DNA of 64,000 nt from an uncultured Spirochaetaceae bacterium (GCA_964458555.1 CAYWJH010000004.1:12379-76378), one strand, 5' to 3'; positions 7,124-31,336 are shown, counted from the stretch's first letter. The notes: generated by a model not told the origin, from the sequence alone. Program-made: numbers and translations.

Positions 7124-7223
7124 GAGCGCTCCTATCCGGTTTTCCTGCAGTGTAAACGGCATCCGGAAATTCGGCAATCGCGTGACACGCGATAGCGAGG
7201 TGAGGTACAAAGGGTGAGTTCCC

Positions 7224-8696: not shown

Positions 8697-8728
8697 CGGC
8701 CTCGGCATCCGGCGGGGAAGAAGACTCC

Positions 8729-10405
8729 ATGGCTGAACACCAGCGTTTTGAACACATGATCAACCGTTCGCGCGACTTCGTCACGCTCATCAACCGTGAC
8801 TACGTGTATGAGTTCGCGAACCGGGCGTACTGCGAGGCGGTCGACCGTACGCAGGAGGACATCGTCGGACGGACCGTAGCCGACCTGTGGGGAGAAGACC
8901 GCTTCTCAACCCGCCTCCAGCCGCTGCTCGACCGCTGCTTCGCGGGAGAGACGATCGAGTACATCGACCGCTTCACCTTCGGGTCGTTCGAAAAGCACAT
9001 GCACGTGTGCTTCTACCCGTACGCCGAACACGGCGAGACGACGCACGCCCTCGTCTTCTCGCACGACATCACGCGCCTCACCGAGATCGAGACAAAGCTC
9101 ACGCACTACGAGTATCTCGATCCGCTGACGGGGCTCTTTAACCGGCGCTCGCTCGACGTCATCCTCGACAAGGAGATCTACCGCGCGAAGCGAAGCCCGG
9201 TGCCGGTGACGCACGCGCTCCTGTTCGTGTCGCTCGAGGGTTTCTCCGAGATCCACCGCGCTTTCGGGATAGAGATGGGCGACATCCTGCTCGAGAACAC
9301 GGGCCTGCGCGTACGGCAGACGGTCCGAGACAGCGACTACGTCTTCCGCTTCGACGGCACCGATCTCACGGTCCTGCTCATCGGCATCACGCACCCGGAG
9401 GACTCGGCGATCGTCGCCGAGAAGATCCACGAGGCGATCACGATGCCGTACAAGCACCAGGGGATCGAGGTGACGATTGCCGCGACGATCGGCGTGGCGA
9501 TCTTTCCCGCCGACGGAGAGACCCACGCGGAGCTCTTCCGCGCCGCGAACACCGCGGTGCTCGAGGCGCGGCGGGAGCGGGAGCCGTACGCGCTCTACAA
9601 GCGCGCGGTGCACGAGGAGGCGATCGCGCGCGCGACGCTCAAGACCGAGCTCGTCGCCGCCTTCGAGGAGCGGCGATTCGTGCTGCACTATCAACCGTTC
9701 GTGGACGCGGAGGGCATGCCGGTCGGCGCCGAGGCGCTCATCCGGTGGAATCATCCGCGCAGGGGGTTGCTCTACCCGGCGTCGTTCATCGCGCTCGCCG
9801 AGGAGACGCGACTGGTGAGCGCGATCGACAAGTGGGCGCTCTACGAGGTGTGCGACCAGCTCGCCGCCTGGTCGCACCTGCCGGATTTCTTCGTCTCGAT
9901 CAACATCAGCGCGCGGGACCTGCTCGACACCTACCTCGTCGAAGCGGTCGGACTCGCGCTCAAGCACGCCGACGGCGTCGCGCCGCACCGGCTGAAGCTC
10001 GAGCTCACCGAACGCATCTCCATGGACGACCCGCAACGTTCGATCGAGACGATGCGCGGGCTCGAGGACTTGGGCGTGGACATCTGGATCGACGACTTCG
10101 GCACGGGACAGTCGTCGCTCGCGTACCTGAAGGAGCTGCCGGCAAAGGTGCTGAAGATCGACAAGGTATTCATCGACCGGATCAAGGACGATGAGGAGGA
10201 TCTCGTCTATCTGGAGAGCATCGTGCGCGCGATCCGGTCGCGGGACAAACGCGTGTGTATCGAGGGCGTGACCGACGCCGACCAGGAGCGTCGCCTGCGC
10301 GGGATCGGGTGCGACCTCATGCAGGGCTACTACTACGCGCAGCCGGTGACGGCAGACAAACTGCTGGAGATGGTGAGCGCCGGTCGGCCGCTGCCGGCGG
10401 GATGA
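8729..10405 (+). CDS. PAS / degenerate-GGDEF / EAL c-di-GMP phosphodiesterase
   Basis: The GGDEF-fold region LDPLTGLFNRRSLD... has FDGTD in place of GGDEF but keeps RDSD (RxxD) 5 aa upstream. The EAL domain looks intact: GAEALIRW, SINISARD, LELTER, DDFGTGQSSLAYL, KIDKVFI, CIEGVT, QGYYYAQP. Confidence 0.85.
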   Translation: MAEHQRFEHMINRSRDFVTLINRDYVYEFANRAYCEAVDRTQEDIVGRTVADLWGEDRFSTRLQPLLDRCFAGETIEYIDRFTFGSFEKHMHVCFYPYAEHGETTHALVFSHDITRLTEIETKLTHYEYLDPLTGLFNRRSLDVILDKEIYRAKRSPVPVTHALLFVSLEGFSEIHRAFGIEMGDILLENTGLRVRQTVRDSDYVFRFDGTDLTVLLIGITHPEDSAIVAEKIHEAITMPYKHQGIEVTIAATIGVAIFPADGETHAELFRAANTAVLEARREREPYALYKRAVHEEAIARATLKTELVAAFEERRFVLHYQPFVDAEGMPVGAEALIRWNHPRRGLLYPASFIALAEETRLVSAIDKWALYEVCDQLAAWSHLPDFFVSINISARDLLDTYLVEAVGLALKHADGVAPHRLKLELTERISMDDPQRSIETMRGLEDLGVDIWIDDFGTGQSSLAYLKELPAKVLKIDKVFIDRIKDDEEDLVYLESIVRAIRSRDKRVCIEGVTDADQERRLRGIGCDLMQGYYYAQPVTADKLLEMVSAGRPLPAG

Positions 10406-18229: not shown

Positions 18230-18940
18230 TCAGTAGAGCTCGTAGCGTTCGATCGAATCGATCTGCAGCAGCACGGTCACGGTGGCCTCGTAGGAGCCTT
18301 CGCGGACGACGACGCGCGGCGCCTCGGCGATGAGCACGGCTCCGGTGATGCGCTTGGGCCGATTGAGCTCGAGCGTCCGCGCGTGGTTGCGGACGGCGCC
18401 TCTGATCGCGTCGCGCGTCGCTTCCGGCTTCGCCGTCGGCCCGCGGATGAAGGGTGACCTGCCCACCCCGCGCGATCGCGGGTTCGCCGCGCTCGTCCAT
18501 CCGCGGTACCAGCCGGCCTGCTCGGGGTCGACCTCGTAGGTGATCCGGGCGTAGAGGCGATCGGCCTCGACCCAGGTCTGGAAGACCCGCAGGCGGGGAT
18601 CACCGCGGACGATCGTCGCGTAGGGGTCGAGCGCGAAGACCTCCTCGACGCCCCGCGACGGCGCGGCCGGTACGTAGGTGAACTCAAACCCGTAGATCAT
18701 CCCGGAGAGCACGAAGGTCGCCTCGTCGAGCAACCGCTCGATCGCCACCTCACGCGGCACCGGTCGCTCGCCGCCGTCGGCGACGATCGGGTCGAGCTCG
18801 CTCCACAGCTCTACGGCGAGGACAACGTCGTCGGGAGCTTGCGCGGAAGCCGCAAACGCGGCGGTGAGAAGAAGGACTGCACCGGCGGTGCGGCGGCTGG
18901 TCACGCCCCTAGTATCGGCTGCTGTCGCGGAAGACGGCAA
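18230..18940 (-). CDS. Secreted hypothetical protein
   Basis: 236 aa with signal-like TAGAVLLLTAAFAASAQA. The start at 18940 overlaps the rhomboid 3' end by 32 nt. An in-frame GTG at 18904 (VTSRRTAGAV...) would remove the overlap. No family recognised. Confidence 0.55.
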   Translation of the reverse strand: MPSSATAADTRGVTSRRTAGAVLLLTAAFAASAQAPDDVVLAVELWSELDPIVADGGERPVPREVAIERLLDEATFVLSGMIYGFEFTYVPAAPSRGVEEVFALDPYATIVRGDPRLRVFQTWVEADRLYARITYEVDPEQAGWYRGWTSAANPRSRGVGRSPFIRGPTAKPEATRDAIRGAVRNHARTLELNRPKRITGAVLIAEAPRVVVREGSYEATVTVLLQIDSIERYELY

Positions 18941-19553
18941 TCGGGTTGATGCGCATCCGTACGATGAGGTAGAGGAATGCGACGCCGAAACCGATGAGAT
19001 GCGTCATGTGCGCCACGTTACCCCCGGTGCGGCTGAACATGTTGAACAGCTCGAGCGCCGCGTACCCGATGACGAGTATCGGCGCCCGGATGGGCAGGAT
19101 CCCAAAGAGCAGGATGGTCGCCGTGGGGAAGTAGGTCGCGAAGGCGAGCAGCACCGCGAACACGGCGCCGGACGCTCCGACGAGCGCCACGTTGTAGGTG
19201 CCGGTGAGCACGTAGACGCCGAAGGAGAGCAGACCGGCGAGCGTGCCGCTCAACAGGTAGAAGAGCAGAAACTCGTTCGACCCGATCCGGCGCTCGAGCT
19301 GCACGCCGAAGAAAAAGAGCCCGAGCATGTTGAACAGCAGGTGCCACGTTCCGCCGTGCACGAACATGTACGTGAATGGCTGCCAGATCCAGCTCTCCAC
19401 GATGATCGCGGCCGGGATGAGCGCCATGCGGTTGATGATCGCGGGCGCCACGAAACCGAGCAGAAACACCGCGACGTTCGCACCGATGAGAATCAGCGCG
19501 GCGTTGTAGTACTGAAACCGCAGCGGCCGCTGGAAAAAAGGCAGTCGTTCCAC
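18909..19553 (-). CDS. Rhomboid-family intramembrane serine protease
   Basis: 214 aa, polytopic. WQPFTYMFVHGGTWHLLFNM and catalytic GASGAVFAVL motifs. Confidence 0.85.
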   Translation of the reverse strand: MERLPFFQRPLRFQYYNAALILIGANVAVFLLGFVAPAIINRMALIPAAIIVESWIWQPFTYMFVHGGTWHLLFNMLGLFFFGVQLERRIGSNEFLLFYLLSGTLAGLLSFGVYVLTGTYNVALVGASGAVFAVLLAFATYFPTATILLFGILPIRAPILVIGYAALELFNMFSRTGGNVAHMTHLIGFGVAFLYLIVRMRINPIAVFRDSSRY

Positions 19554-19643
19554 GCGTTCAAGCTATGTCAGCCCGAGGGTCGGGTCAAGCGGCGCTTTTG
19601 CAGCGGTTCTGCAATGTGACTATGATGGCGCGAGGAGGAACGG

Positions 19644-20615
19644 ATGCTCATCGACATGCCACTCGAGGAACTTCGCACGTACACCGGCCGCAACCCCCGC
19701 CCGCGCGACCTGGACGCGTACTGGGACCGCGCGCTCGCCGAGCTCGACGCGACCCCACCCGAGGTCGAGCTGAAGCCGGCGGCGTTTTCCGCTCCGCACG
19801 CCGAGTGTTACGATCTCTCCTTCACGGGTACCGGCGGCGCGCGGGTCCACGCGAAGGTCGTGAAGCCGCGCGATCCCTCGCCGTTGCGCGGCGACGGCGG
19901 CGCCCCCGGGCTCGTCCACTTCCACGGATACAGCGGGAGCGCGGGCGACTGGACCGCCTTCCTCGGCTGGGCGGGCGCCGGGTTCGTGAACGCCGCGCTC
20001 GACTGCCGCGGCCAGGGCGGCGAGAGCGAAGACACCGGAGGCGTTCTGGGAAATACGCTTCGCGGCCACATCATCCGCGGACTCGACGACCACGAGGACA
20101 AGCTCCTCTACCGGCAGATCTACCTCGACACCGTGCGCCTCGCGCGGATCGTGATGGACTTCGACGAGGTGGACCCCACGCGCGTGGGCGCGACCGGCGG
20201 CTCGCAGGGCGGCGGGCTCACCGTCGCCTGCTCCTCGCTCGAGCCGCGCATCGCGCGGTGCGCGCCGGTGTTTCCCTTCCTGTCGGACTACCGACGCGTG
20301 TGGGAAATGGACCTCGCAAAGAACGCGTACCAGGAGATCCAGGACTACTTCCGCCGCTTCGACCCCACGCACGAGCGCGAGGAGGAGGTCTTCACGCGGC
20401 TCGGCTACATAGATGTACACAATTTGAGCCCGCGGATCCGCGCGAACACGCTCATGTTCACCGGGCTCATGGACCAGGTCTGCCCGCCGTCCACGCAGTT
20501 TGCCGCGTACAACGCGATCACATCGACGAAGGCCATGGTGATCTACCCGGACTTCGGGCACGAGAACCTGCCCGGCCATCAGGACCGCGTCTTCGCCCAC
20601 ATGCTGGAGCTGTGA
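19644..20615 (+). CDS. Acetylxylan esterase / cephalosporin-C deacetylase (CE7 family)
   Basis: 323 aa. N-terminus MPLEELRTYTG..P.DLDAYW, nucleophile elbow GGSQGGGL, LMDQVCPPSTQFAAYN, FGHE. Confidence 0.85.
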   Translation: MLIDMPLEELRTYTGRNPRPRDLDAYWDRALAELDATPPEVELKPAAFSAPHAECYDLSFTGTGGARVHAKVVKPRDPSPLRGDGGAPGLVHFHGYSGSAGDWTAFLGWAGAGFVNAALDCRGQGGESEDTGGVLGNTLRGHIIRGLDDHEDKLLYRQIYLDTVRLARIVMDFDEVDPTRVGATGGSQGGGLTVACSSLEPRIARCAPVFPFLSDYRRVWEMDLAKNAYQEIQDYFRRFDPTHEREEEVFTRLGYIDVHNLSPRIRANTLMFTGLMDQVCPPSTQFAAYNAITSTKAMVIYPDFGHENLPGHQDRVFAHMLEL

Positions 20616-21208
20616 TGGCCCGCCGCGACCGCCCGGACCACTACACGAAGCGCGCGAGGCGCGAGGGATACCGGGCGCGCTCGGTCTACAAGCTGGAGGA
20701 GCTGCAGCGCCGCTTCGCGATCCTCGCCCCTGGGATGCGCGTGCTCGACGTGGGCGCCGCGCCCGGCAGCTGGACGCAGTACGCGCGGAAGGTGGTCGGC
20801 GGACGCGGCTCGATCGTCGCGGTCGACCTCTCCGAGCTCCCGGCGCTCGGGGGCCTTGATAACGTGGAGGTTGTTATCGGCGACGTCACCGACGAAGAAA
20901 TCGCGCGGCGGCTCGAGCACGCGGGACCGTTCGACGCGATCGTAAGCGACGCCGCGCCGAAGACGAGCGGCAACCGCACGCTCGACACCGCACGCTCGGC
21001 GGCGATCGTCGAGCACCTGCTCTGGCTCGCGCCGCGGCTCCTCGCTCGCGGCGGGCGTCTCGTCGCGAAGCTCTTCCAGGGCGGCGAGGAACAGGCGCTG
21101 CTCGGCGAGCTGCGCTCCCGGTTCGAGACCGCGCGGCTCGTGAAGCCCAAGGCGAGCAGGGACGAGAGCTTCGAGACGTTTCTCGTGGGGACGGGGTTTC
21201 GGGGATAG
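20615..21208 (+). CDS. rlmE: 23S rRNA (uridine-2'-O)-methyltransferase RlmE/FtsJ
   Basis: Last 198 codons of track ORF 19565-21208. RSVYKLEEL, SAM motif LDVGAAPGSWTQ, VSDAAPKTSG, KLFQG. ATG 20615 overlaps the esterase TGA (TGATG). Confidence 0.85.
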   Translation: MARRDRPDHYTKRARREGYRARSVYKLEELQRRFAILAPGMRVLDVGAAPGSWTQYARKVVGGRGSIVAVDLSELPALGGLDNVEVVIGDVTDEEIARRLEHAGPFDAIVSDAAPKTSGNRTLDTARSAAIVEHLLWLAPRLLARGGRLVAKLFQGGEEQALLGELRSRFETARLVKPKASRDESFETFLVGTGFRG

Positions 21209-21239
21209 CGCCGGGGCGGGAGCCGCGCCGGGGCGGCGC

Positions 21240-22274
21240 TCAGTACTCCCGGTCGAGGAGCTTGCCGGCGACCGCGCCGAGCGCCTCGCGCAGACGCGGC
21301 TCTCCCAACGCGCCGATCGCCCGTCGTGCGCGGGACGTGTAGGCCGCTGCGCTCGAGCGCGCGGCGCGAAGGCCGCCCGCATTTCGGATCGCGGCCACCG
21401 CCTCGCGGAGGCCGTCCTCGTCGGACGGCGGCGGCACGACCAGCTCCTGGATCCGCGGGTCCCGGGTCACCGCGACGATCACCGGCAGCGTGTAGATGCC
21501 CGCGCGGAGGTCGGAGGCGGCCGGTTTCCCGATCGCGTCCGGGCGAGCGGTGAAGTCGAGAATGTCGTCGATCACCTGAAACGCCATACCCAGGTTGTAG
21601 CCCGCTCGCGCGAGCATGGCGATCTGTCCGGCTTGCGCCTTCGTCTCCGACGCGCCGGTCACGAGGCTCAGCCCGAACAGCGTGGCGGTCTTGCCCGCGA
21701 TGCGGCGCAGATAGGCGCGGCGGCTGAACGCGTCTCGTCCGGCCTCGAACATCTGGTTGATCTCTCCGCGGACGAGGTGGCCGACGGCGGCGGCGAGGCG
21801 CAGCGCGTTCTCGCGCTCGGTCCCCTCGGCGATCATCGAGAAGCAGCGCGAGAGCAGATAATCGCCCATGAGCACCGCCTGCTTGCGGCCGTAGAGCGCG
21901 TGCAGCGACGGGTCGCCGCGGCGCCGGTCGGCGTCGTCGATCACGTCGTCGTGCACCAGGGTCGCGATGTGGAGCGTTTCTATCGCCGCGGCGATCTGGA
22001 TGAGCCGCTCGTCGGCGGGTCGATCCGATCGGCCACGGCCGGCCCACGATCCGATGAGCACGAAGCCCGGACGGAGCATCTTGCCAGGCCGGGCGACGTA
22101 CTGCGAGAGCGCGTTCCCGATCGGTCCGCCCGCCGAGGCGGCGACGTCGACCACGAGCTCGTGGATACGCCGCAGGTCGTGCGCGAGCTCCGGCACGTCG
22201 GCCCAGAACGGGAAGTCGGAGAATGGAAGGCCCCGCGAGGAAGCGGGGCCTGGAAGCGCAGCCGAGCTACTCAA
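21240..22274 (-). CDS. Polyprenyl diphosphate synthase (trans-isoprenyl, medium/long chain)
   Basis: 344 aa. FARM LVHDDVIDDADRRRG and SARM FQVIDDILDF. The TTG start at 22274 directly abuts the TAA stop of the upstream NDH-2 gene. Confidence 0.88.
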   Translation of the reverse strand: MSSSAALPGPASSRGLPFSDFPFWADVPELAHDLRRIHELVVDVAASAGGPIGNALSQYVARPGKMLRPGFVLIGSWAGRGRSDRPADERLIQIAAAIETLHIATLVHDDVIDDADRRRGDPSLHALYGRKQAVLMGDYLLSRCFSMIAEGTERENALRLAAAVGHLVRGEINQMFEAGRDAFSRRAYLRRIAGKTATLFGLSLVTGASETKAQAGQIAMLARAGYNLGMAFQVIDDILDFTARPDAIGKPAASDLRAGIYTLPVIVAVTRDPRIQELVVPPPSDEDGLREAVAAIRNAGGLRAARSSAAAYTSRARRAIGALGEPRLREALGAVAGKLLDREY

Positions 22275-24242
22275 TTACGGACGCGGCTCCCCGGTGTAGA
22301 GATAGGTCTTCTTCGCGAGCTTCGTACCATTCCACTTCTCGTGCAGCCACGGCATTACGTAGTGGTCGAGCCCGAATCCGCGTCCGGCACCGCCGAGCAT
22401 GACGATCGACGCCATGATGTACCACAGCAGCTCGGGGTTGCCCCAGCCGGACGCGATGAACATCACGCTGAAGCCGATCGAAACGACCGCGGCCGGGAAG
22501 GTGAGCAGTCCGCCAATAAGCGCGAGACCGATCGCCACCTGGCCGAGCACGACCGCGCTCTGGAGCAGGAAGGCGAGCAGCGGCGACGCGCTCAGGACCG
22601 TCTCCGCGAACCAGGTGTAGATGCCCAGCGCCTCGATGAGCGGCTCGCCGTACTCGCCCGCCGCAGCGGCACCCTCGCCCGCGGCCGGGGTTGCGGCGCT
22701 CGCCGCGTCGGTTGCGGCGCTCGTCGCGTCGCCGTAGTTCACTCCGGGCAGCTTGATCGCACCGGTCCACACCTCCGAAAGGCCCTCGTCGCCCGGATTG
22801 AGCCAGCCTTCGGTGATGTGCTTGATCCCTTCGGCGAGCCATTTGCCGCCGAGCCAAAGCCGCAGCGGGACCGCCCAGTAGACGGGGATCTTCCACGCAA
22901 AGTGGCCCTCCACGAAGGACCGCTGGTCCTTGATCGTGAGGAACTCGTGCTGGATATACTCCCAGACCGCGTTGATGCCCGCGAGCCCGAGGAGGTAGTG
23001 CATGTTGATGAGGTGCTTGACCCCCATCGCGAAGATGCCGGAGAGCGACATCCCCATGACGTGCGCAACGCCGTAGCGCCCGCCAATGGAGACCATGAAG
23101 CCGTGGTAGTTCGATTCGAACTTCTTCTTTTCCTTGCCCTCGATGTCGGCGATGACGTTTTCGGACGCCGTCTCCGCGGTCTGAAGCGCGGTCTCGACGA
23201 TCTGCGGAACGACCTTGTCGCCTTCGACGAACCAGATCATGTCGCCCACGAGGTAGACGTTGCGGTAGTCGACCGACTGCATCTGCTGGTTCACGAGCAC
23301 GCGCCCGCGCTGGCCGACGACGTAGCGCTCTTCCTCGTCGAAGTGACAGCCCGCCATGCCGTGGATACCCTCGACGGAGGCGACCGAGCACTCGTCGCTC
23401 GAGCACCTGCCCTTCGTCAGGGGGATCTTCGCGGTGAACTCTGACCCCTGGATACCGGCGGTCCAGATGAAGGTGTCGGTGGGCAGCTCACGGTCTTCTT
23501 CGAGCTTCACCACACCCTCGTCGGCGCCGACGATCGTCGTGCTGAGCATGACCTCGCAGCCGATCTTTTTGAGGTACTTCGCCGCCTTCACCTGCGGCTT
23601 GCCCGGCAGGTTCGGCAGAATGTTGTCCTTCATCTCGACGACGCGGATCGTGACCTCGTCCTTCTTGATGTGATACTTCGGGCAGAGCTGGTCACGGCGC
23701 TCGCAGAGCTCGCCGGCGAGCTCGATGCCCGTGAACCCGGCGCCGGCGATCACGAAGCTGAGCATGCGCTCGCGGATCTTCGGGTCCGGCTCCTTCGCCG
23801 CCTCGCGGAAGCGCTCCTCGACGTGGGTCCGGATCCGGATCGCGTCCTCGAGCGACCAGAGCGTGAAGCTGTTCTCCTGCACGCCCGGGATGCCGAAGAA
23901 CTCCGGCCGACCGCCGGTTCCGACGATCAGGTAGTCGTATTCGTACGACGCCGTCTCCGACTTCATGACGTTATTGTCGAAGTCGATCGACTCGATTTCG
24001 TCGATGAATACCTTTACATTCGTACCGGCGAAGATCTTCCGGAAGCTGACCTGGACCGCTTCGGGTTCGGTCCGCGAGCCGGCGATCTCGTGCAACTCGG
24101 TCATCAGCGTGTGATACGGGTTGCGATCGACGAGAAACACTTCGACGTCGTCGTTGCGCTTGAAGTGTTTGTAGAGCTTCTTGGCGGCTTCGACGCCACC
24201 GTAGCCGCCGCCGAGGACGGCGATCCTGGTTCTTTCAGACAT
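22275..24242 (-). CDS. Type II NADH dehydrogenase (NDH-2) with additional C-terminal membrane domain
   Basis: 655 aa. IAVLGGGYGGVEAAKKL and FVIAGAGFTGIELAGEL dinucleotide folds. After ~aa 420 come a W-rich amphipathic segment, an Ala/Thr/Gly linker and 3-4 TM helices. Confidence 0.85.
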   Translation of the reverse strand: MSERTRIAVLGGGYGGVEAAKKLYKHFKRNDDVEVFLVDRNPYHTLMTELHEIAGSRTEPEAVQVSFRKIFAGTNVKVFIDEIESIDFDNNVMKSETASYEYDYLIVGTGGRPEFFGIPGVQENSFTLWSLEDAIRIRTHVEERFREAAKEPDPKIRERMLSFVIAGAGFTGIELAGELCERRDQLCPKYHIKKDEVTIRVVEMKDNILPNLPGKPQVKAAKYLKKIGCEVMLSTTIVGADEGVVKLEEDRELPTDTFIWTAGIQGSEFTAKIPLTKGRCSSDECSVASVEGIHGMAGCHFDEEERYVVGQRGRVLVNQQMQSVDYRNVYLVGDMIWFVEGDKVVPQIVETALQTAETASENVIADIEGKEKKKFESNYHGFMVSIGGRYGVAHVMGMSLSGIFAMGVKHLINMHYLLGLAGINAVWEYIQHEFLTIKDQRSFVEGHFAWKIPVYWAVPLRLWLGGKWLAEGIKHITEGWLNPGDEGLSEVWTGAIKLPGVNYGDATSAATDAASAATPAAGEGAAAAGEYGEPLIEALGIYTWFAETVLSASPLLAFLLQSAVVLGQVAIGLALIGGLLTFPAAVVSIGFSVMFIASGWGNPELLWYIMASIVMLGGAGRGFGLDHYVMPWLHEKWNGTKLAKKTYLYTGEPRP

Positions 24243-24362
24243 GCGTTCTCCTTGCGTTCGGAGTGAGACGTACGAGTATGTGAGGAAAATAGTACCTTAT
24301 ATATCGATTTCGGTAAACACTTCTTTGCACTAAGCGCGCGATTTGTGCCAGAAAGAGGGACA
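24243..24362. promoter_or_regulatory. AT-rich divergent intergenic region between the NDH-2 and ApbE genes (putative divergent promoters)
   Basis: This is the most AT-rich spacer in this part of the window (..gaggaaaatagtaccttatatatcgatttcggtaaacacttctttgcac..). GAGGGA lies just upstream of ATG 24363. No specific operator recognised. Confidence 0.35.
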
Positions 24363-25493
24363 ATGCACAATAAACCACCTTCCGTCACAACAAATCGGTT
24401 TTATCCTGGATCGGTGCGGGCCGATTGGACCGTCTCGCCGGCGAGGTCGGTGGTCATCCGGGCCGCCACGGCGATCCTCGTCGCGGCGGCCGTGGCGCTC
24501 CTGCTCGCCGGCTGTGGCTCGGCGCCTACCGAGCGGCATTCGGAGACCGAGCTCCTGCTCGGAACGACCGTCAGCGTCACGACCTACGGCGACGTCCCCG
24601 ACGAGGTCTACTCGCGCGTCTTCGATCGCGTGCTCGAGATCGAAGAGAAGATGAGCACGAGCGAAGAGGACTATAGCATGACCGAGCTGATGGCGGTCAA
24701 CGACGCGGCCGGTGAGATGCCGATCGGCGTCTCCGAGGACACGTTCCGGGTCGTCGCGCAGGCCGTCGACTACTCGCGGCTCACCGGCGGCGCGTTCGAC
24801 GTCTCGGTACAGCCGCTCGTCTCGCTCTGGGGCATCGGAACCGAATGGGCCGCGATTCCGCCCGAAGAAGAGATTCGAGCGGCCGTCGCCGCGGTCGACT
24901 ACCGCGCCGTCCGGCTCGACCCGCCGAGCCAGGAGATCTTCCTCCCCGAGCCGGACATGGGCATAGACGTGGGCGGGATCGCGAAGGGGTACGCCGCAGA
25001 CGAGGCCGCGCGCATCCTCCGCGAGGAAGGGGTAGAGAGTGCGCTTCTCGACTTCGGCGGCAATATCCAGACGGTGGGGACGAAGCCCGACGGCTCGGCG
25101 TGGCGGATCGGTATCCAGGTGCCCGACGCGACGCGCGGACAGTACGTTGGCATCGCAGACGTCGTCGACCTCTCGGTCGTCACCTCCGGCACCTACGAGC
25201 GCTACTTCGTCGAGGACGGGGTTCGCTACCATCATATCCTCGACACGACCACCGGGCATCCGGTGCGCAACGGGCTCGCCAGCGTGACCATCATCACCGG
25301 CGAGTCGATCAGGGCCGATGCGTTGTCGACTGCGGTCTTCGCCATGGGGCTCGAGGACGGGCTCGCCTTCGTAGAGGGTCTCGCCGAGGTAGAAGCGTTC
25401 TTCGTGACGACCGAGCGCGAGGTCATCATGACCAGCGGCATGGACGAGTACTTCGAGCTGACGAACGAGCAGTTCACGCTGGCCGATCGCTGA
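24363..25493 (+). CDS. apbE: FAD:protein FMN transferase (ApbE family) lipoprotein
   Basis: Lipobox ALLLAGCGS. FDVSVQPLVSLWG, GGIAKGYAADEA, TSGTYERYF..YHHILDTTTGHP. The track start is GTG 24345. ATG 24363 behind GAGGGA is preferred. Confidence 0.88.
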   Translation: MHNKPPSVTTNRFYPGSVRADWTVSPARSVVIRAATAILVAAAVALLLAGCGSAPTERHSETELLLGTTVSVTTYGDVPDEVYSRVFDRVLEIEEKMSTSEEDYSMTELMAVNDAAGEMPIGVSEDTFRVVAQAVDYSRLTGGAFDVSVQPLVSLWGIGTEWAAIPPEEEIRAAVAAVDYRAVRLDPPSQEIFLPEPDMGIDVGGIAKGYAADEAARILREEGVESALLDFGGNIQTVGTKPDGSAWRIGIQVPDATRGQYVGIADVVDLSVVTSGTYERYFVEDGVRYHHILDTTTGHPVRNGLASVTIITGESIRADALSTAVFAMGLEDGLAFVEGLAEVEAFFVTTEREVIMTSGMDEYFELTNEQFTLADR

Positions 25494-25505
25494 CGCGGGC
25501 CGGCG

Positions 25506-26354
25506 CTACCGGCAGAGCCGGTTCGGAAGCGGCGCCTCGACCCGGTCGCGCGCGATCCGCTCGGCGAGCGCGACGAATCGCGCCGACGACAACGTCGCCC
25601 CGGCGACGGCGTCGACCTGCGGCTCGGACGGCTGCGCGGCGATCAGGCGTTCGACGAGCGTGGACCCGACCTCCGCCGACGTGATCCCGGATGCGGTCGC
25701 AAAGCGTTCCTGGTAGGCAGCGTCGTCGCGCTTGCGACGCACCGACCCGTCGAGCTCGCGACGCACCTCGCGGTACGAGCCGGCGGTAAGGCCGTCGCCG
25801 TCGTAGGCGAGCACGAGCTCCGCACGCCAGCCGAGCTCGTCGGGCTCGTCGGAGGCGGTGTACGGTCCGGGCGTCGCGACGACATCGAGCCCGGCGGCGT
25901 CCGTCGTGAGCCCGACCTTCGCGGCCGCGAGCGCGCGCCGGGCGAGCACGTCGAAAGTGACCGACCACGTCACCGCGTTCACGGCTGCGGGCAGCGGCAC
26001 CGTCTGACGCTCGATCAGTCGCGAGCGTAGCTCGTCGAAGAGCGCGAGCAGATCGGTCCCGGTATCGAGACGGTAGCGCTCGACGAAACGCTCGGTCTCC
26101 GAGAGGCGCTCCCCGGCCGCGTCGACCGCGTCGAAGCAGACGATGTCCACGAGCCCGGCGCGCACGCGCAGGTAGATGAAGGGACGCCACCCCTCGGGAC
26201 CGGTGTGCGAGTAGGCCGCTGCGTACGTGCCGTCGCGGTAGAGCGGCGTTCCGTCGGCCGCGCGGAGCGCATCGGGGTCGGTCTCGGGCGGACCGCACGC
26301 GACGAGTACCGAAGCCGCGGCTACGAGGACGAGGAGCTCAGAACGTCTGCGCAT
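25506..26354 (-). CDS. FMN-binding-domain lipoprotein (candidate ApbE substrate)
   Basis: Internal ATG 26354 gives MRRRSELLVLVAAASVLVACG (lipobox). Two DGTY/PGPY-type half-domains. The C-terminal VDAVAGATLSS matches the flavinylation consensus Dxx(s/t)gA(T/S). The track extension to 26630 is Arg/Ser-rich junk overlapping the next gene. Confidence 0.7.
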   Translation of the reverse strand: MRRRSELLVLVAAASVLVACGPPETDPDALRAADGTPLYRDGTYAAAYSHTGPEGWRPFIYLRVRAGLVDIVCFDAVDAAGERLSETERFVERYRLDTGTDLLALFDELRSRLIERQTVPLPAAVNAVTWSVTFDVLARRALAAAKVGLTTDAAGLDVVATPGPYTASDEPDELGWRAELVLAYDGDGLTAGSYREVRRELDGSVRRKRDDAAYQERFATASGITSAEVGSTLVERLIAAQPSEPQVDAVAGATLSSARFVALAERIARDRVEAPLPNRLCR

Positions 26355-26718
26355 CGACCCCGTCCTCGTCTTCGGCGCCCTCCACGCGAACGAAGACGCG
26401 GTTGGGCAGGCAGGCGGTCCACTGTCCGGACTGGTCAAGCCATCCGGCGGCGATGCAGAGCTTGTCGCGGCACGGGCTCGAATGGACGTGCACTCGCCCC
26501 TCCTCGATCTCGACGACCGTGTCGCCGAGCGGTCCGGCGACCGGGATCGTGCGGTCGACGTCGAGCGGGTAGAGGAAGGTACCCTCGTCGGTCTCGATGC
26601 TGACCTCGCTCGCCTGCGCGCGTCCGCCAAAGGCGAAGACGCTCGCGGCGACGACCGTCGCGATGGACACGAGGAGCGCGACGTAGTCGAGCGGGCGTGT
26701 CACGAACCGTCGGCTCAT
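26338..26718 (-). CDS. NusG domain II-like (DUF1312) single-pass membrane protein
   Basis: 126 aa. N-terminal TM LDYVALLVSIATVVAASVFAF, then beta-rich ..VEIEEGRVHVHSSPCRDKLCIAAGW..GQWTACLPNRVFVRVEG.., the pattern I associate with DUF1312/NusG_II. The 3' end overlaps the next gene start by 17 nt. Confidence 0.65.
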   Translation of the reverse strand: MSRRFVTRPLDYVALLVSIATVVAASVFAFGGRAQASEVSIETDEGTFLYPLDVDRTIPVAGPLGDTVVEIEEGRVHVHSSPCRDKLCIAAGWLDQSGQWTACLPNRVFVRVEGAEDEDGVDAQTF

Positions 26719-26734
26719 GGTTCGACGCCCATCC

Positions 26735-27481
26735 TTACTTCCGCCGCTTGTCGCGGATGTAGATCTGCTTCCCGGCCGAGTTCACGGTCGAGCGTTCGTC
26801 GATGTGGAAGAGATCGATCGCCGTCACGAGCTCGCCGAGCTTCTTGTACCCGTAGTTGCGCGGGTCGAACTCGGGCGCCTTGTTGGCGATATTCTGTCCC
26901 ACCGTACCCAGGTTCGCCCAGCCGGTCTCATCGGCGGAGTCTTCCGTGGCGTTGCGAAGGAGATTGACCAGGCGCGAATCGCTCTTCATCTCGCGCGCCG
27001 TCATCGGCTTCTTCGTAGCCTCTGCCTTCTCGTCCTCCTGGCGGAGAATCTCGGTGAAGATGAACCGGTCGCAGGCGCCCACGAAGGCCTTGGGCGTCTT
27101 CTGCTCGCCGAAGCCGTAGACGATGAGCCCCGCCTCGCGAATCCGCGCGGAGAGGCGCGTGAAGTCGCTGTCGCTCGACACGACGCAGAACCCGTCCATC
27201 GTCTCGGTATAGAGCAGATCCATCGCGTCGATGATCATCGCGCTGTCGGTCGCGTTCTTGCCGCGGGTGTAGGCGAATTGCTGGATGGGCTGGATCGCGT
27301 GCTCGAGCAGGACTTCCTTCCACCCCTTCAGGTGGGTGCTCGTCCAGTCTCCGTAGATGCGTTTGACGGTCGCAACGCCGTAGTTCGCGATCTCTTCGAG
27401 CAGACTCTCGATAATGTCGGGCCGGGTATTGTCGGCATCAATAAGGACGGCCAATCGTTTCTGACCCTCGCTGTTTGGCAT
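26735..27481 (-). CDS. NYN-domain (LabA-like) protein with C-terminal OST-HTH/LOTUS domain
   Basis: 248 aa. LAVLIDADN, NATDSAMIIDAMD, CVVSSDSDFTRL (NYN). C-terminal GWANLGTVGQNI..FDPRNYGYKKLGELV (LOTUS-like). Confidence 0.85.
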   Translation of the reverse strand: MPNSEGQKRLAVLIDADNTRPDIIESLLEEIANYGVATVKRIYGDWTSTHLKGWKEVLLEHAIQPIQQFAYTRGKNATDSAMIIDAMDLLYTETMDGFCVVSSDSDFTRLSARIREAGLIVYGFGEQKTPKAFVGACDRFIFTEILRQEDEKAEATKKPMTAREMKSDSRLVNLLRNATEDSADETGWANLGTVGQNIANKAPEFDPRNYGYKKLGELVTAIDLFHIDERSTVNSAGKQIYIRDKRRK

Positions 27482-27554
27482 GTGTAGACACTACGGCATC
27501 GGGCGCGGATGATCAATGGTTGACAGATCGGGCGGGTCGATCGATGCTTAGCCG

Positions 27555-28244
27555 ATGAACTGGTGGGGCATCGTCGTATCGTTCGGCTTCGTATTCGGTT
27601 TCATCGGCATCGCTCAGCTGCTGCTGCGCGCCGGGCGGATCTCTCCTTCGGTCACGCGCAAGGTCGTCCATATTGGCGTCGCTCACTGGTGGATCCTGGC
27701 GATGGTCTTCTTCGACCGCTGGGAGTTCGCAATCGTCGGCCCGGCGGCGTTCATCCTCATCAATCTCGCGAGCTATCTCTTCCGGCTCTTCCCCGCGATG
27801 GAGCACGAGAAGCGGAGCCGAAACCTGGGAACGGTCTACTTTCCGGTAGCGCTCCTCGCGTGCGTGCTGCTGACGTGGGCGGGGCCGGTGCCCATCTGGG
27901 TCGGCGGTCTGGCGATCCTCGTGCTCGGCTGGGGTGACGGGCTCGCCTCCGTCGTGGGCGAGAGTCGCGGATCGGGCTTGCTGACGGTGTTCGGCGCGAC
28001 GAAGAGCATCGCAGGAACGGTGACCATGTTCGTCGTCTCCACCGTCGTGGTCACCGTCTTCGTCCTTCTGTTCCTCGCGCCGGGCCCACTTGGAAGCGCC
28101 GGCGGCGACCCGGCGGTCGCGGTGCTCGTCGTGCGGATCCTCGCGACAGCGCTCGTGGCCACGCTCGTCGAGCTCGCGACTCCGTTCGGGCTCGACAACC
28201 TCACGGTGCCGATCGTGACGCTCCTGTTCTTCCATCTCGTATGA
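27555..28244 (+). CDS. Polyprenol (phytol/dolichol-type) kinase, CTP-dependent family
   Basis: 229 aa, polytopic. RKVVHIGVAHWW and GWGDGLASVVGE motifs. The TGA overlaps the next ATG. Confidence 0.7.
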   Translation: MNWWGIVVSFGFVFGFIGIAQLLLRAGRISPSVTRKVVHIGVAHWWILAMVFFDRWEFAIVGPAAFILINLASYLFRLFPAMEHEKRSRNLGTVYFPVALLACVLLTWAGPVPIWVGGLAILVLGWGDGLASVVGESRGSGLLTVFGATKSIAGTVTMFVVSTVVVTVFVLLFLAPGPLGSAGGDPAVAVLVVRILATALVATLVELATPFGLDNLTVPIVTLLFFHLV

Positions 28245-29101
28245 CCGACCAGCCCGTCCTGCTTGGGATCGTCGCCGTTCTCCTCAACGCCGGCGCGGGG
28301 TACGGCGCGTGGCGCCGCGGATCGGTGACCGCCGGCGGCGGGGTGGCCGGCGCGGTCGTCGGCGCCGTCATCCTCTTCGCCGGCGGGTTCACGTACTGGA
28401 TCATGCTGATGCTGTTTTTCGTGAGCTCGACCCTCGCGAGTCGTCTGGGCATCCGGCGAAAAAGACGGCTCGAGCGGATGCACGAGAAGGGCAGCCGCCG
28501 CGACGCGGTCCAGGTCTTCGCCAACGGGGCCGTTGCCGCCGTCGCCGTGGTCGCGCTTCGCACGACCGGAGGGCCGGTGTTCGCGCTCGCGGCGGCGGGC
28601 GCCTTTGCGAGCGTGAACGCGGACACGTGGGCGAGCGAGCTGGGGGTGCTCGCGAGGCGGCCGCCCCGGTCGATCGTGACCTGGCGGGAGCTCGAGCCGG
28701 GCACGTCCGGCGGCGTGTCGGTTCCCGGTACCGTCGCGGCCGCTGCCGGGTCGCTGGCGATCGCGGTGTGGTTCGCGCTTTCGGTGGGCTTCGCGGGTGA
28801 GCCGATGGAGGGCGCCGGGGGCGCGTTGCTCGCTCCCGCGACGATCGGGCCGGCCGCGGCGCTTCTCGTCGTCTGGCTCGCCGGGTTCGTCGGGACGACC
28901 GCGGACAGCGTGCTCGGCGCGACGGTGCAAGCGCTCTACCGCGACGAAAGCGGCGCGATCACCGAGCGCCGGCGCGGACCCGATGGCCCCAACGAACGCG
29001 CGCGGGGGATCCCGTTCGTGACGAACGACGTCGTGAACGCGGTGAGCTCGATCGTCGCGGCGGTTGCTGCGGGGTACGGGGGCAGCGTGCTGGGCGCGTA
29101 G
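28241..29101 (+). CDS. DUF92 / TMEM19-family membrane protein (VTE6-like polyprenyl-phosphate kinase candidate)
   Basis: 286 aa, polytopic. ..RRDAVQVFANGAVAAV.., ..NADTWASELG.., GTSGGVSVPGT. ATGA overlap with the upstream kinase at 28241-28244. Confidence 0.72.
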   Translation: MTDQPVLLGIVAVLLNAGAGYGAWRRGSVTAGGGVAGAVVGAVILFAGGFTYWIMLMLFFVSSTLASRLGIRRKRRLERMHEKGSRRDAVQVFANGAVAAVAVVALRTTGGPVFALAAAGAFASVNADTWASELGVLARRPPRSIVTWRELEPGTSGGVSVPGTVAAAAGSLAIAVWFALSVGFAGEPMEGAGGALLAPATIGPAAALLVVWLAGFVGTTADSVLGATVQALYRDESGAITERRRGPDGPNERARGIPFVTNDVVNAVSSIVAAVAAGYGGSVLGA

Positions 29102-29135
29102 GGCGCCTGAGGGCCGTGCCAGGCCGCCGACCCGC

Positions 29136-30428
29136 TCAGCTGCGCGCGCCGCGGCTGCCCGGCTCCTTCAGCCGGACGAACCGGACCTGGTTGCGGCCGT
29201 TCTCCTTGGCGATATAGAGCGCCTTGTCGGCGGCGTGCACGATGCGCGTCAGCGCGTGCCGCGGCGAGCGGCGCTCGGAGATACCCATGGATACCGTCAC
29301 GCCGATCCGCTTGCTGCCGAACGACGTTTCCATCTCTTCGATCGAGGCGCGCAACCGCTTCGCGAGCGGCACGACATCGCGGCCGGCCCGCCCCGGGAAG
29401 AAGACGATCAGCTCCTCACCGCCGTAGCGGCAGACCACGCCCTCGGGGATGACCGCCTTCTGGATCGCCTGCGCGACCGCGAAGAGAATGCGATCGCCCG
29501 CCTGATGACCGTACGTGTCGTTCACCTGCTTGAAGTGGTCTATGTCGATCATCATCACCGCGAAGGGCGGGCGGGTCGGCACGCTCGACTGCTCGGCGAG
29601 GATCTGGTTGCAGTACTCACGGTTGTAGATCTGCAGCAGCGGGTCGTATGAGACGCGGTGCTCCATGCGGGCGAGCAGGTGGGCGATGATCGCCGCGATC
29701 AGGAAGAGCGGCGCGGCCGTGGCGAAGAGCAGCATCACCACGTGCGGCGAGGTCGCGCTGTACCCGACGAAATCGAGCGCCGGCGGCAGCACCCACGAGC
29801 CGCCGGCGAGCACTGCGAGCCCCACGAACGCTCCGCGGAGATAGAAGCTCTGGGGACGCATGAGCGCGTTGATGACGAGCACCCCCACCGTGAGCGTCGC
29901 AGCGACGAGGACCGGGACCGAGACGAGACGTTCGGGCTCGAGCACCGCGAGAACGCCAACGGTCGCGGGGAAGAACCTGACTACCGCCAGAAGCACCACC
30001 TGCGCCGCGACGAGGATCCAGGTCGCGAGGCGTGTCGTGCGATAGGTGGGAAACGGCGGGACAAAGGTGTACGCGTAGGTGAGCCCGAGCGCGAGCGCGT
30101 AGACGAGGCGAGCGTAGCCGTCGGGCGGGTCGGGCACGAAGTCCGCATAGTAGCCACCGAAGCCGATGAAGAGCGCGAGGAGAACGCTGTGCAACCCCAC
30201 CGAGTACCCGGCGAGGTAGACGCGAAGATTCTGCACGCGAGGGTACGAGACGTGCCCGGCGAAGAGCGCGAGAGTGCCAAGCGCAAGCGCCGCCGACGGC
30301 AGGATCGTCCGCGTCAGCGCAACCGGAGGCAGCGGACCGGCGGCAACCGCGGCCGCCGCGATGCCGCCGAGGAGCGCCAGCGCCACGACGAGCAGCAAGC
30401 TTCCCCATCGGGCAGACCGGACGATCAT
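29136..30428 (-). CDS. Membrane-anchored diguanylate cyclase (GGDEF)
   Basis: ~8 N-terminal TM helices, then YDPLLQIYNREY..MMIDIDHFKQVNDTYGHQAGD..CRYGGEELIVFF. ATG 30428 (MIVRSARW..) overlaps the thyX TGA (ATGA). The track start is 30446. Confidence 0.85.
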   Translation of the reverse strand: MIVRSARWGSLLLVVALALLGGIAAAAVAAGPLPPVALTRTILPSAALALGTLALFAGHVSYPRVQNLRVYLAGYSVGLHSVLLALFIGFGGYYADFVPDPPDGYARLVYALALGLTYAYTFVPPFPTYRTTRLATWILVAAQVVLLAVVRFFPATVGVLAVLEPERLVSVPVLVAATLTVGVLVINALMRPQSFYLRGAFVGLAVLAGGSWVLPPALDFVGYSATSPHVVMLLFATAAPLFLIAAIIAHLLARMEHRVSYDPLLQIYNREYCNQILAEQSSVPTRPPFAVMMIDIDHFKQVNDTYGHQAGDRILFAVAQAIQKAVIPEGVVCRYGGEELIVFFPGRAGRDVVPLAKRLRASIEEMETSFGSKRIGVTVSMGISERRSPRHALTRIVHAADKALYIAKENGRNQVRFVRLKEPGSRGARS

Positions 30429-31336
30429 AGCTGACCGCCGCCCCACAGCTTCGCTACGAAGCGGTCGGCGGCCCTGCCGGTAATCCCGGCCGCCTCGGCC
30501 GCGGTACGCGCCCGCGTTTCGAGGTCACCTGCAGCGGCCCCGGCATCTGCGGTCTCGCTCGCCGGCGCGCCCGCGCTCAGCATCGTCTGCAGCGCATCGA
30601 GCTCGTCGCGCGAGAACCGGACCCCGGCGAGCATGTGTCGCCCGAACGACGCGCACGCAGCCGGACACACCTTTTTCGCGATTTCGAACATCTGCGTCGC
30701 GTAGAGGCGGATCTCCTTCTGGGCGTGCGCGTCCATGCGCAGCTTCAGAAAGCGAAAGAGATTGTGGAGGTCGATCTGCCAGTACCACTCGGTGTAGAGA
30801 CTCAGGGGCAGGTTGATGCGCGCGAGCTCCCGGGCGATCCCGTCGTCGAGGAGCTTCGTGTAGGAGGCGTAGGCGTCGGCCTGGCCCGCGCGCACGAGCG
30901 CCTGAACGCGCGCCTCCTCGTCGGACGACAGCCGCTCCTCGGATCGGCCCTGCTTGTTGTCGGCGCTCTGGACCGCGATGTCTTCGCCCGAAGGCACGTA
31001 GAACTCGTCCTTCATGACGCTGTAGCGGCCGCTGATCTCGTTGAGTCGCGCCATCCGGTGGCGGACCCACTGCCGCGCGACGAAGATGGGCATCTTCGCG
31101 TGAAAGGTCAGCACGACCTGCTCGAACGGCGAGGTGTGCTCGTTGCGCAGGAGGTAATCGATGAGCGCCGCGTCCTTGCGGTAGCTCTTCGTGCCCTCGC
31201 CGTAGGATACGCGCGCCGACTGGACGATCCGCTGGTCGCCACCGAGGTAATCGACGAGCCGCACGAACCCCTTGTCGAGGACCGGGAACTCGCGGTCGAG
31301 AATCTCTTCTGCTTCGGGAACGACGACGTGTGCCAT
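30425..31336 (-). CDS. thyX: FAD-dependent thymidylate synthase ThyX
   Basis: Internal ATG 31336 gives MAHVVVPEAEEILDREFPVLDKGFVRLVDYLG. ThyX motif RHRMARLNEIS (RHR-x7-S). ~60-aa Ala/Gly-rich C-terminal tail. Confidence 0.88.
   Translation of the reverse strand: MAHVVVPEAEEILDREFPVLDKGFVRLVDYLGGDQRIVQSARVSYGEGTKSYRKDAALIDYLLRNEHTSPFEQVVLTFHAKMPIFVARQWVRHRMARLNEISGRYSVMKDEFYVPSGEDIAVQSADNKQGRSEERLSSDEEARVQALVRAGQADAYASYTKLLDDGIARELARINLPLSLYTEWYWQIDLHNLFRFLKLRMDAHAQKEIRLYATQMFEIAKKVCPAACASFGRHMLAGVRFSRDELDALQTMLSAGAPASETADAGAAAGDLETRARTAAEAAGITGRAADRFVAKLWGGGQL

Follow-up and report, generated by a model that had tools for sequence, protein, structure and literature searches.

The 64,000-nt window analysed here, one strand of DNA from an uncultured Spirochaetaceae bacterium (GCA_964458555.1, CAYWJH010000004.1:12379-76378), has a G+C content of about 66% and carries, at positions 21,240 to 26,718, a block of five genes resembling the flavin-based extracellular electron transfer (FLEET, or EET) locus of Listeria monocytogenes. 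They encode a long type II NADH dehydrogenase (NDH-2), a polyprenyl diphosphate synthase, an ApbE-type flavin transferase, a PplA-like lipoprotein and a NusG_II (DUF1312) protein with a single transmembrane (TM) helix. An open reading frame (ORF) map and family scans find all five at the coordinates and in the families given by the original prediction, made from the sequence alone. Its reading of a FLEET-like block is backed by homology for every part, and where it had counted four to five EET parts, clustered in a high-GC background and in a different gene order, all five genes are confirmed, the fifth as a putative EetA counterpart. A 12-kb Joint Genome Institute (JGI) metagenome contig holds an identical NDH-2 with the same gene calls.

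The nearest relatives of this NDH-2 (60-95% identity) all belong to Spirochaetota, among them Alkalispirochaeta, Spirochaeta africana and many metagenome-assembled genomes (MAGs), whose sample names include "CSSed" and "Salar de Ascotan", which we take to be soda-lake and salt-flat sediments. For this taxonomic reason the host envelope is expected to be diderm, and both lipoproteins of the block periplasmic. When one genome per GTDB species was scanned, 558 stretches proved to encode an NDH-2 relative; the best 80 of these, all from Spirochaetota, were studied, the loci being compared by tblastn and by hidden Markov models (HMMs) built from the loci themselves. Fifty loci, those with 4 kb or more of sequence upstream of the NDH-2 gene and 2.5 kb or more downstream, are informative; neighbours were counted within 5 kb.

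The NDH-2 gene (22275-24242(-)) encodes 655 residues. A Pyr_redox_2 match spans residues 6-293 (Pfam, E 5e-33), and the dinucleotide-binding motifs are GGGYGG (11-16) and GAGFTG (167-172). The catalytic domain, predicted to bind FAD and NADH, covers residues 1-435 (22938-24242(-)), and its best sequence matches in the PDB are bacterial NDH-2 enzymes. The AlphaFold 2 (AF2) model, with a mean predicted local distance difference test score (pLDDT) of 74.7, superposes on solved bacterial NDH-2 over about 430 residues only (Foldseek against the PDB; target-normalised TM-score 0.93). Beyond residue ~436 lie some 220 extra residues (436-655; 22275-22937(-) with the stop codon) with several predicted membrane helices, split by a variable Ala/Gly/Ser-rich low-complexity loop of low model confidence (~500-530); no solved structure covers this domain (Foldseek against the PDB). 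Motifs, Pfam match and predicted helices agree with the enzyme first described, a 655-residue NDH-2 with two dinucleotide folds and an extra hydrophobic C-terminal domain. Ordinary NDH-2 (Bacillus subtilis YjlD and the enzymes of Caldalkalibacillus thermarum and Staphylococcus aureus) has the same fold and cofactor motifs up to residue ~430, but is only about 400 residues long, with amphipathic C-terminal helices for attachment and no DoxX-like domain; in the window protein the structural matches stop at ~430 and a helical domain follows.

Compared directly with Pfam, the C-terminal domain gives only a non-significant DoxX match (E 4.6), and a weak MiaE_2 match among the direct Pfam hits was judged spurious. 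Searched by phmmer against 1.84 billion representative proteins, the last 220 residues gave only 160 matches, most of them the C-termini of NDH-2 proteins of 600-730 residues and most without a name. Among 42 of these relatives scanned with Pfam, DoxX matched 26 and DoxD 19, and the MauE model was also hit. A Firmicutes MAG supplies one relative, which in turn is related to Clostridia long NDH-2 annotated as DoxD/DoxX. Homology of this domain, as of the lipoprotein described below, is thus traced via relatives and pairwise alignment, the direct Pfam matches being non-significant. On inspection of the sequence, the conserved ...GGAGRGFGLDHY... ending is typical of the DoxX/DoxD family. By way of its relatives, the extra domain belongs by homology to the DoxX/DoxD superfamily, like that of Firmicute EET Ndh2, published examples of which are annotated Pyr_redox_2 plus DoxD or DoxX. 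That family includes DoxD, the small subunit of thiosulfate:quinone oxidoreductase (TQO), and DoxX-type partners of membrane oxidoreductases; unlike these, the window domain is fused to NDH-2 and interrupted by the low-complexity loop.

In both domains the protein groups, by alignment and score, with the long NDH-2 of Firmicutes and not with ordinary NDH-2. The catalytic domain reaches 330-377 bits against ten Clostridia long forms, compared with 173-196 bits for the ordinary enzymes named above, 196 being the best ordinary NDH-2 in the PDB; the C-terminal domain matches the same ten at E 1e-20 to 1e-31. With the 608-residue long NDH-2 of Thermotalea metallivorans the window protein shares 39% identity over residues 6-637 (E 9e-138), in an alignment that takes in the conserved ...GGAGRxFGxDHYxxPWL ending. 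A grouping with ordinary NDH-2 and an unrelated C-terminal domain, the outcome that the original prediction had set against itself, is not what the bit scores and the alignment give. A spirochaete-specific insert of ~29 residues (277-305; 23328-23414(-)) falls in a gap of the T. metallivorans alignment. Its columns EGIHGMxGC (His294, Cys299) are invariant in 37 spirochaete homologues and Cys285 is conserved; its AF2 pLDDT lies below 50, and it may form a loop that binds metal or takes part in redox chemistry.

The TAA stop of ndh2 is directly followed by the TTG start of the polyprenyl diphosphate synthase gene (trans type; 21240-22274(-)), an arrangement already noted in the prediction together with the motifs DDVIDD (109) and DDILD (236), and seen at the sequence level. 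On the identical metagenome contig the JGI start lies 78 nt further downstream; the N-terminus is nonetheless conserved in a 94%-identical relative. The family match (Pfam polyprenyl_synt, E 7e-57) and the position abutting ndh2 point to the DmkB component of FLEET/EET. Small residues, Ala and Thr, occupy positions -5 and -4 ahead of the first Asp-rich motif, so that by the chain-length rule the product is probably medium- or long-chain. The top NCBIfam models are hexaprenyl, heptaprenyl and solanesyl synthases, all scoring under their equivalog cut-offs.

Divergent from ndh2 lies apbE (24345-25493(+)), across an intergenic spacer of 102 bp and 44% G+C (24243-24344; 102-120 bp and 44-46% G+C as a range), in agreement with the AT-rich spacer of about 120 bp described before. 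No consensus promoter was found in the spacer; a promoter/terminator scan gave the level expected from shuffles, and Rfam gave no match across 20500-29500, hence no riboswitch. The product is a predicted FAD:protein FMN transferase (FMN, flavin mononucleotide; Pfam ApbE, E 5e-89) with the lipobox LLAGC, also as predicted. Its closest solved relative is Listeria monocytogenes FmnB (7ESA; E 1.4e-77, 264 bits), and family, lipobox and best PDB match together point to an extracytosolic ApbE/FmnB of the FLEET/EET kind. Treponema pallidum Ftp (PDB 4ifu) is likewise a periplasmic ApbE-family lipoprotein of a spirochaete, but matches more weakly than Listeria FmnB (E 1.4e-51, 179 bits); Ftp is not known to be linked to a long NDH-2.

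Convergent on apbE is the gene of a lipoprotein of 282 residues (25506-26354(-); lipobox LVAC), in which NCBIfam, PDB and pairwise comparisons delimit two tandem PplA-type FMN-binding domains. PDB 3o6u matches domain 2 (E 2e-9), and the PplA-like protein of T. metallivorans aligns over both domains (33% identity, E 4e-33). In domain 2 the stretch DAVAGAT (residues 248-254; 25593-25613(-)) fits the flavinylation motif Dxx(s/t)gA(T/S), with Thr254 as predicted target, aligns with VDVVTGAT of the Firmicute homologue, and is intact and conserved in close relatives. The lipoprotein had been described as ending in VDAVAGATLSS: the ApbE-type motif and the lipobox stand, but some 30 residues separate the motif from the C-terminus. 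In domain 1 the corresponding place reads NAVTWSV (residues 126-132; 25959-25979(-)), a degenerate former site. Judged by alignment, the lipoprotein is a two-domain homologue of the PplA of FLEET/EET loci in which the second predicted flavinylation site alone is intact.

A second PplA-like type occurs in Alkalispirochaeta-type loci (L017 at 8924-9775(-), L020, L024 and L039). Both of its sites, DSISGVS, are intact, and its signal peptide shows no clear lipobox Cys. The gene adjoins the NDH-2/synthase pair, next to which L024 also has a MenA-type prenyltransferase.

One could suppose that ApbE mainly serves flavinylated complexes encoded elsewhere (Rnf, Nqr, or periplasmic reductases of the fumarate or urocanate type), the PplA-like protein being a minor or decaying substrate. 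One of the two flavinylation sites is already degenerate, 11 of the 50 informative loci have ApbE and NusG_II without a PplA-like gene nearby, and treponemes do use a periplasmic ApbE, Ftp, to which the window protein is related. However, no Rnf, Nqr, cytochrome or reductase gene was found among the ~40 window ORFs scanned, nor any RnfB/NqrF-type family in the recurrent neighbour clusters of the 80 relatives; the site in domain 2 is kept in close relatives, and the ApbE resembles Listeria FmnB more than it does the treponemal Ftp. We regard this explanation as very unlikely.

The fifth gene (26338-26718(-)) encodes the NusG_II protein, whose single TM helix and 17-nt overlap with the start of the lipoprotein gene were both foreseen (Pfam NusG_II, E 2.5e-22). 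The overlap suggests translational coupling of the two genes. NusG_II-type proteins in the PDB match at E 4e-6. In the published EET loci of Enterococcus, Lactiplantibacillus and Clostridiaceae, a one-TM NusG_II protein of 133-165 residues lies between ndh2 and the PF07456 gene. According to the literature, PF07456 is EetB, the energy-coupling factor (ECF) S subunit of an FAD exporter, co-localised with eetA in 3,328 genomes. Since NusG_II fills the slot between ndh2 and eetB, we infer by elimination that the NusG_II protein is the EetA counterpart. The prediction had listed a polytopic "EetA-like" gene as missing; this has to be revised, the polytopic gene not in view being eetB and the putative EetA being the NusG_II protein itself.

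All NusG_II proteins inspected, from the window (26341-26358(-)) and 13 spirochaete loci (among them L009, L011, L026, L033, L040, L041, L045, L053, L056, L057, L063 and L066), end in VDA(Q/G/S)TF or minor variants of it, outside the Pfam NusG_II model. As it resembles the first half of the flavinylation motif only, this end was not adopted as an ApbE site.

EetB itself (PF07456, E 1e-32 to 2e-36) is found in five relatives' loci, between NusG_II and ApbE in L053, L056 and L066, and also in L058 and L061. A domain of ~210 residues with four TM helices is fused to EetB or follows it directly (L053:3104-4390(+), L066:1919-2578(+)); it has no Pfam or NCBIfam match and might be an ECF-T/FmnA-like partner.

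Across the 50 informative loci, a polyprenyl synthase is near NDH-2 in every case, and always immediately downstream of it. NusG_II accompanies NDH-2 in 23 loci, ApbE in 20, a UbiA-family prenyltransferase in 13 and a PplA-like gene in 10; in four loci NusG_II stands without ApbE or PplA. NDH-2 and the synthase are the only invariant core, and the other parts come and go, so the five-gene block is not a conserved unit. The relatives' UbiA genes match Pfam at E 2e-31, and their best NCBIfam matches are all models of 1,4-dihydroxy-2-naphthoate (DHNA) polyprenyltransferase (E 1e-52). Taken together, the spirochaete loci hold every type of FLEET part except FmnA, in shifting combinations. In one of them (L018:6718-8747), genes for a lycopene cyclase and a 'carotenoid biosynthesis protein' lie between NusG_II and ApbE. 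The linkage of the five genes is far beyond chance. Dozens of further species show these neighbours again.

Loci of this kind have already been catalogued. Méheust et al. (2021) defined EET operationally as a flavinylation-associated cluster with a K03885 NADH dehydrogenase having a TM helix, the NDH-2 lying no more than five genes away from one for an ApbE or FMN_bind protein with a signal peptide or lipobox, and counted 553 such clusters in 547 genomes. The window locus falls under this definition, with an NDH-2 bearing predicted TM helices beside lipobox-bearing ApbE and PplA-like genes. In the same study (eLife, Supplementary file 1), contig SLST01000134.1 of the Alkalispirochaetaceae MAG SLST01 sp007130265, with an NDH-2 and a "Fmn_Bind (pplA)" lipoprotein, is labelled EET. 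This contig is our locus L012, and its NDH-2 is 71% identical to that of the window. It shares the gene order of window positions 18230-30446: a secreted protein of 234 residues, rhomboid, AXE1, FtsJ, synthase, NDH-2, and then PplA-like, NusG_II, NYN, phytol kinase, DUF92 and GGDEF; it differs in having no ApbE between NDH-2 and the lipoprotein. Sediminispirochaeta bajacaliforniensis is also labelled EET in that file, with an apbE divergent from a 695-residue NDH-2 (Pyr_redox_2 plus DoxD) and then an abutting synthase, as in the window; unlike the window it has EetB (PF07456), and no gene labelled FMN_bind or PplA is listed in its cluster. The novelty first claimed for a spirochaete FLEET block was therefore overestimated, a syntenic spirochaete locus having been labelled EET before; our literature search found no paper whose text discusses FLEET in spirochaetes.

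Outside the spirochaetes, the T. metallivorans locus (L086) has the 608-residue NDH-2 divergent from a PplA-like lipoprotein, with ApbE and a polyprenyl synthase. Its FMN_bind lipoprotein (265 residues) scores 190 bits against the NCBIfam PplA model. It differs from the window in that both PplA sites are intact, the 29-residue NDH-2 insert is absent and no NusG_II is called in the locus.

The Listeria FLEET locus, reportedly described by Light and colleagues in 2018, is summarised here after later papers. It comprises Ndh2, PplA, FmnB, DmkA, DmkB, EetA, EetB and FmnA (Rivera-Lugo et al. 2023, PMC9973259). The window matches it in the long NDH-2 with a C-terminal membrane domain, the PplA-type lipoprotein, the ApbE/FmnB, the polyprenyl synthase and, putatively, the NusG_II protein as the EetA-type part. 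It differs in its presumably diderm host, its G+C of ~66%, its gene order and its lack of DmkA, EetB and FmnA; moreover, its PplA-like protein keeps one of two sites and its NDH-2 bears the Cys-containing insert. By homology, then, the locus is a relative of the Listeria flavin-based electron-export cluster and not a new kind of system.

We therefore read the block as the likely spirochaete version of the FLEET/EET system first described in Listeria, with a probability of roughly 0.7. In such a system the cytoplasmic NDH-2 domain would oxidise NADH and reduce a polyprenyl naphthoquinone, of demethylmenaquinone type, in the inner membrane, the quinone tail coming from the polyprenyl synthase coupled to it in translation. 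Binding the quinone or handing it on would probably fall to the DoxX/DoxD-like membrane domain fused to NDH-2. Electrons would then leave the inner membrane for FMN held covalently on Thr254 of the periplasmic PplA-like lipoprotein, to which the ApbE lipoprotein would attach it with FAD as donor. The single-TM NusG_II protein would be an EetA-type accessory, and the final acceptor would be either periplasmic or beyond the outer membrane.

Several points weigh against this reading, whose functional part we infer from homology and linkage. The homology of the long NDH-2 was measured only against Clostridia long forms, by end-to-end alignment with that of T. metallivorans and by score against ten. 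For the lipoprotein, the NCBIfam model lipo_FMN_PplA matches both domains (E 3e-16) at 59 bits, well below its cut-off of 325; Pfam FMN_bind matches only the DAVAGAT stretch, at a sub-threshold E of 0.003. Domain 1 has lost its flavinylation site, VNAVTWSV aligning with the intact VDVVTGAT of T. metallivorans, and it is degenerate also in the 94%-identical relative L005. No UbiA-family (DmkA/MenA) ORF was found in the 64-kb window, either with an HMM from the relatives' UbiA genes or with Pfam on polytopic ORFs, in agreement with the prediction that no DmkA is in view, and EetB (PF07456) is likewise absent from the whole window. Quinone supply and periplasmic FAD supply are consequently unaccounted for, and DmkA/MenA and EetB must be encoded elsewhere or replaced. 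Nor is an acceptor reductase, a cytochrome or an outer-membrane component visible in the window.

The survey adds to these points. The window's combination is repeated in only three of the 50 informative loci, NDH-2 and synthase stand alone in 12, and S. africana and A. alkalica have no ApbE, PplA or NusG_II within 10 kb of NDH-2. Because the accessory parts vary and these two species lack them nearby, NDH-2 may work independently of the flavoprotein. This leads to the main rival explanation: NDH-2 and synthase would form the clade's general NADH:quinone oxidoreductase with its tail synthase, serving membrane redox balance, while ApbE, the PplA-like protein and NusG_II would be a separate periplasmic flavoprotein module, for instance for iron reduction and uptake or for repair chemistry. 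The invariance of the pair in 50 of 50 loci amid variable partners fits it well, as does the long NDH-2 locus of Geosporobacter ferrireducens, where no FLEET neighbours were found. Against it, in many species ApbE is divergent from NDH-2 and ~100-380 bp away from its start, and the pairing is found in Firmicutes too; in Listeria, genetics reportedly places the parts in a single pathway (Light et al. 2018, according to later papers), and neither the window nor the scanned loci offer the flavoprotein another membrane electron-transfer partner. On balance we consider this rival unlikely, if a serious contender.

A further variant concerns the role of NusG_II. The spirochaete FLEET parts might form a conduit that is periplasmic instead of extracellular, in which NusG_II and the DoxX-like domain of Ndh2 link quinol to extracytosolic flavins, NusG_II not being an accessory of EetB. 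Hints of this are the presence of NusG_II near the pair in 23 of 50 species, compared with EetB in five loci, the four NusG_II loci without ApbE or PplA, and the conserved VDA(Q/G/S)TF end. The proposal is speculative and we would give it low odds.

It is more improbable still that the five genes are functionally unrelated neighbours caught in a conserved syntenic stretch. In the closest relatives the order of FtsJ, rhomboid, NYN, DUF92, GGDEF and ThyX genes is indeed kept as plain synteny; yet the same functional set is re-assembled in other orders in distant spirochaetes and in Firmicutes, so that coincidence is scarcely credible.

Two sets of neighbours lie upstream of the NusG_II gene. The nearer encodes a protein with NYN and OST-HTH/LOTUS domains, a predicted RNA nuclease or RNA binder (26735-27481(-)). 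Its gene shares the NusG_II strand and stops 16 nt ahead of the NusG_II start, a position kept in 18 relatives, and it has no evident link to electron transfer. The second is a putative prenol-kinase pair, a gene for a 7-TM protein (27555-28244(+)) overlapped by a DUF92 gene (28241-29101(+)), which we take to resemble the VTE5/VTE6-type pair of prenol and prenyl-phosphate kinases. The 7-TM protein has no Pfam or NCBIfam match; its SLST01 orthologue is annotated as KEGG K18678, phytol kinase. The suggestion that this pair may feed the same isoprenoid branch has only clade-wide synteny behind it: the pair accompanies the block as part of that wider synteny, and we have left it out of the system.

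Elsewhere in the window, a GatA-type amidase is followed downstream by a single stop-free frame (50503-53451(-)) that may encode a fusion of GatB and asparaginase: GatB domains at residues 186-651 precede, in frame, the N- and C-terminal domains of asparaginase at 658-974. Three cyclic di-GMP signalling proteins (7218-10405(+) and 29136-30446(-)) have the architectures PAS-GAF-GGDEF, PAS-GGDEF-EAL and 8-TM GGDEF; in several relatives the 8-TM GGDEF protein is directly upstream of NDH-2.

To our knowledge, studies of FLEET have been confined to monoderm Firmicutes and a few Actinobacteria. The classification of the window locus is not itself new; the locus adds bacteria with two membranes to the range of a known system. 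The details worth noting are a core of Ndh2-DoxX and DmkB that never varies, the company that NusG_II keeps with Ndh2 independently of EetB, the single surviving flavinylation site and the conserved Cys-containing insert. If the spirochaete version is active, diderm spirochaetes of alkaline and saline sediments, which are largely fermentative, would also export electrons by way of flavins across their inner membrane, with consequences for models of their redox balance and of their reduction of metals or humic matter. An invariant core of Ndh2-DoxX and DmkB, joined by modular ApbE, PplA, NusG_II, MenA and EetB, may also inform how electrons exit from the quinone pool in FLEET.

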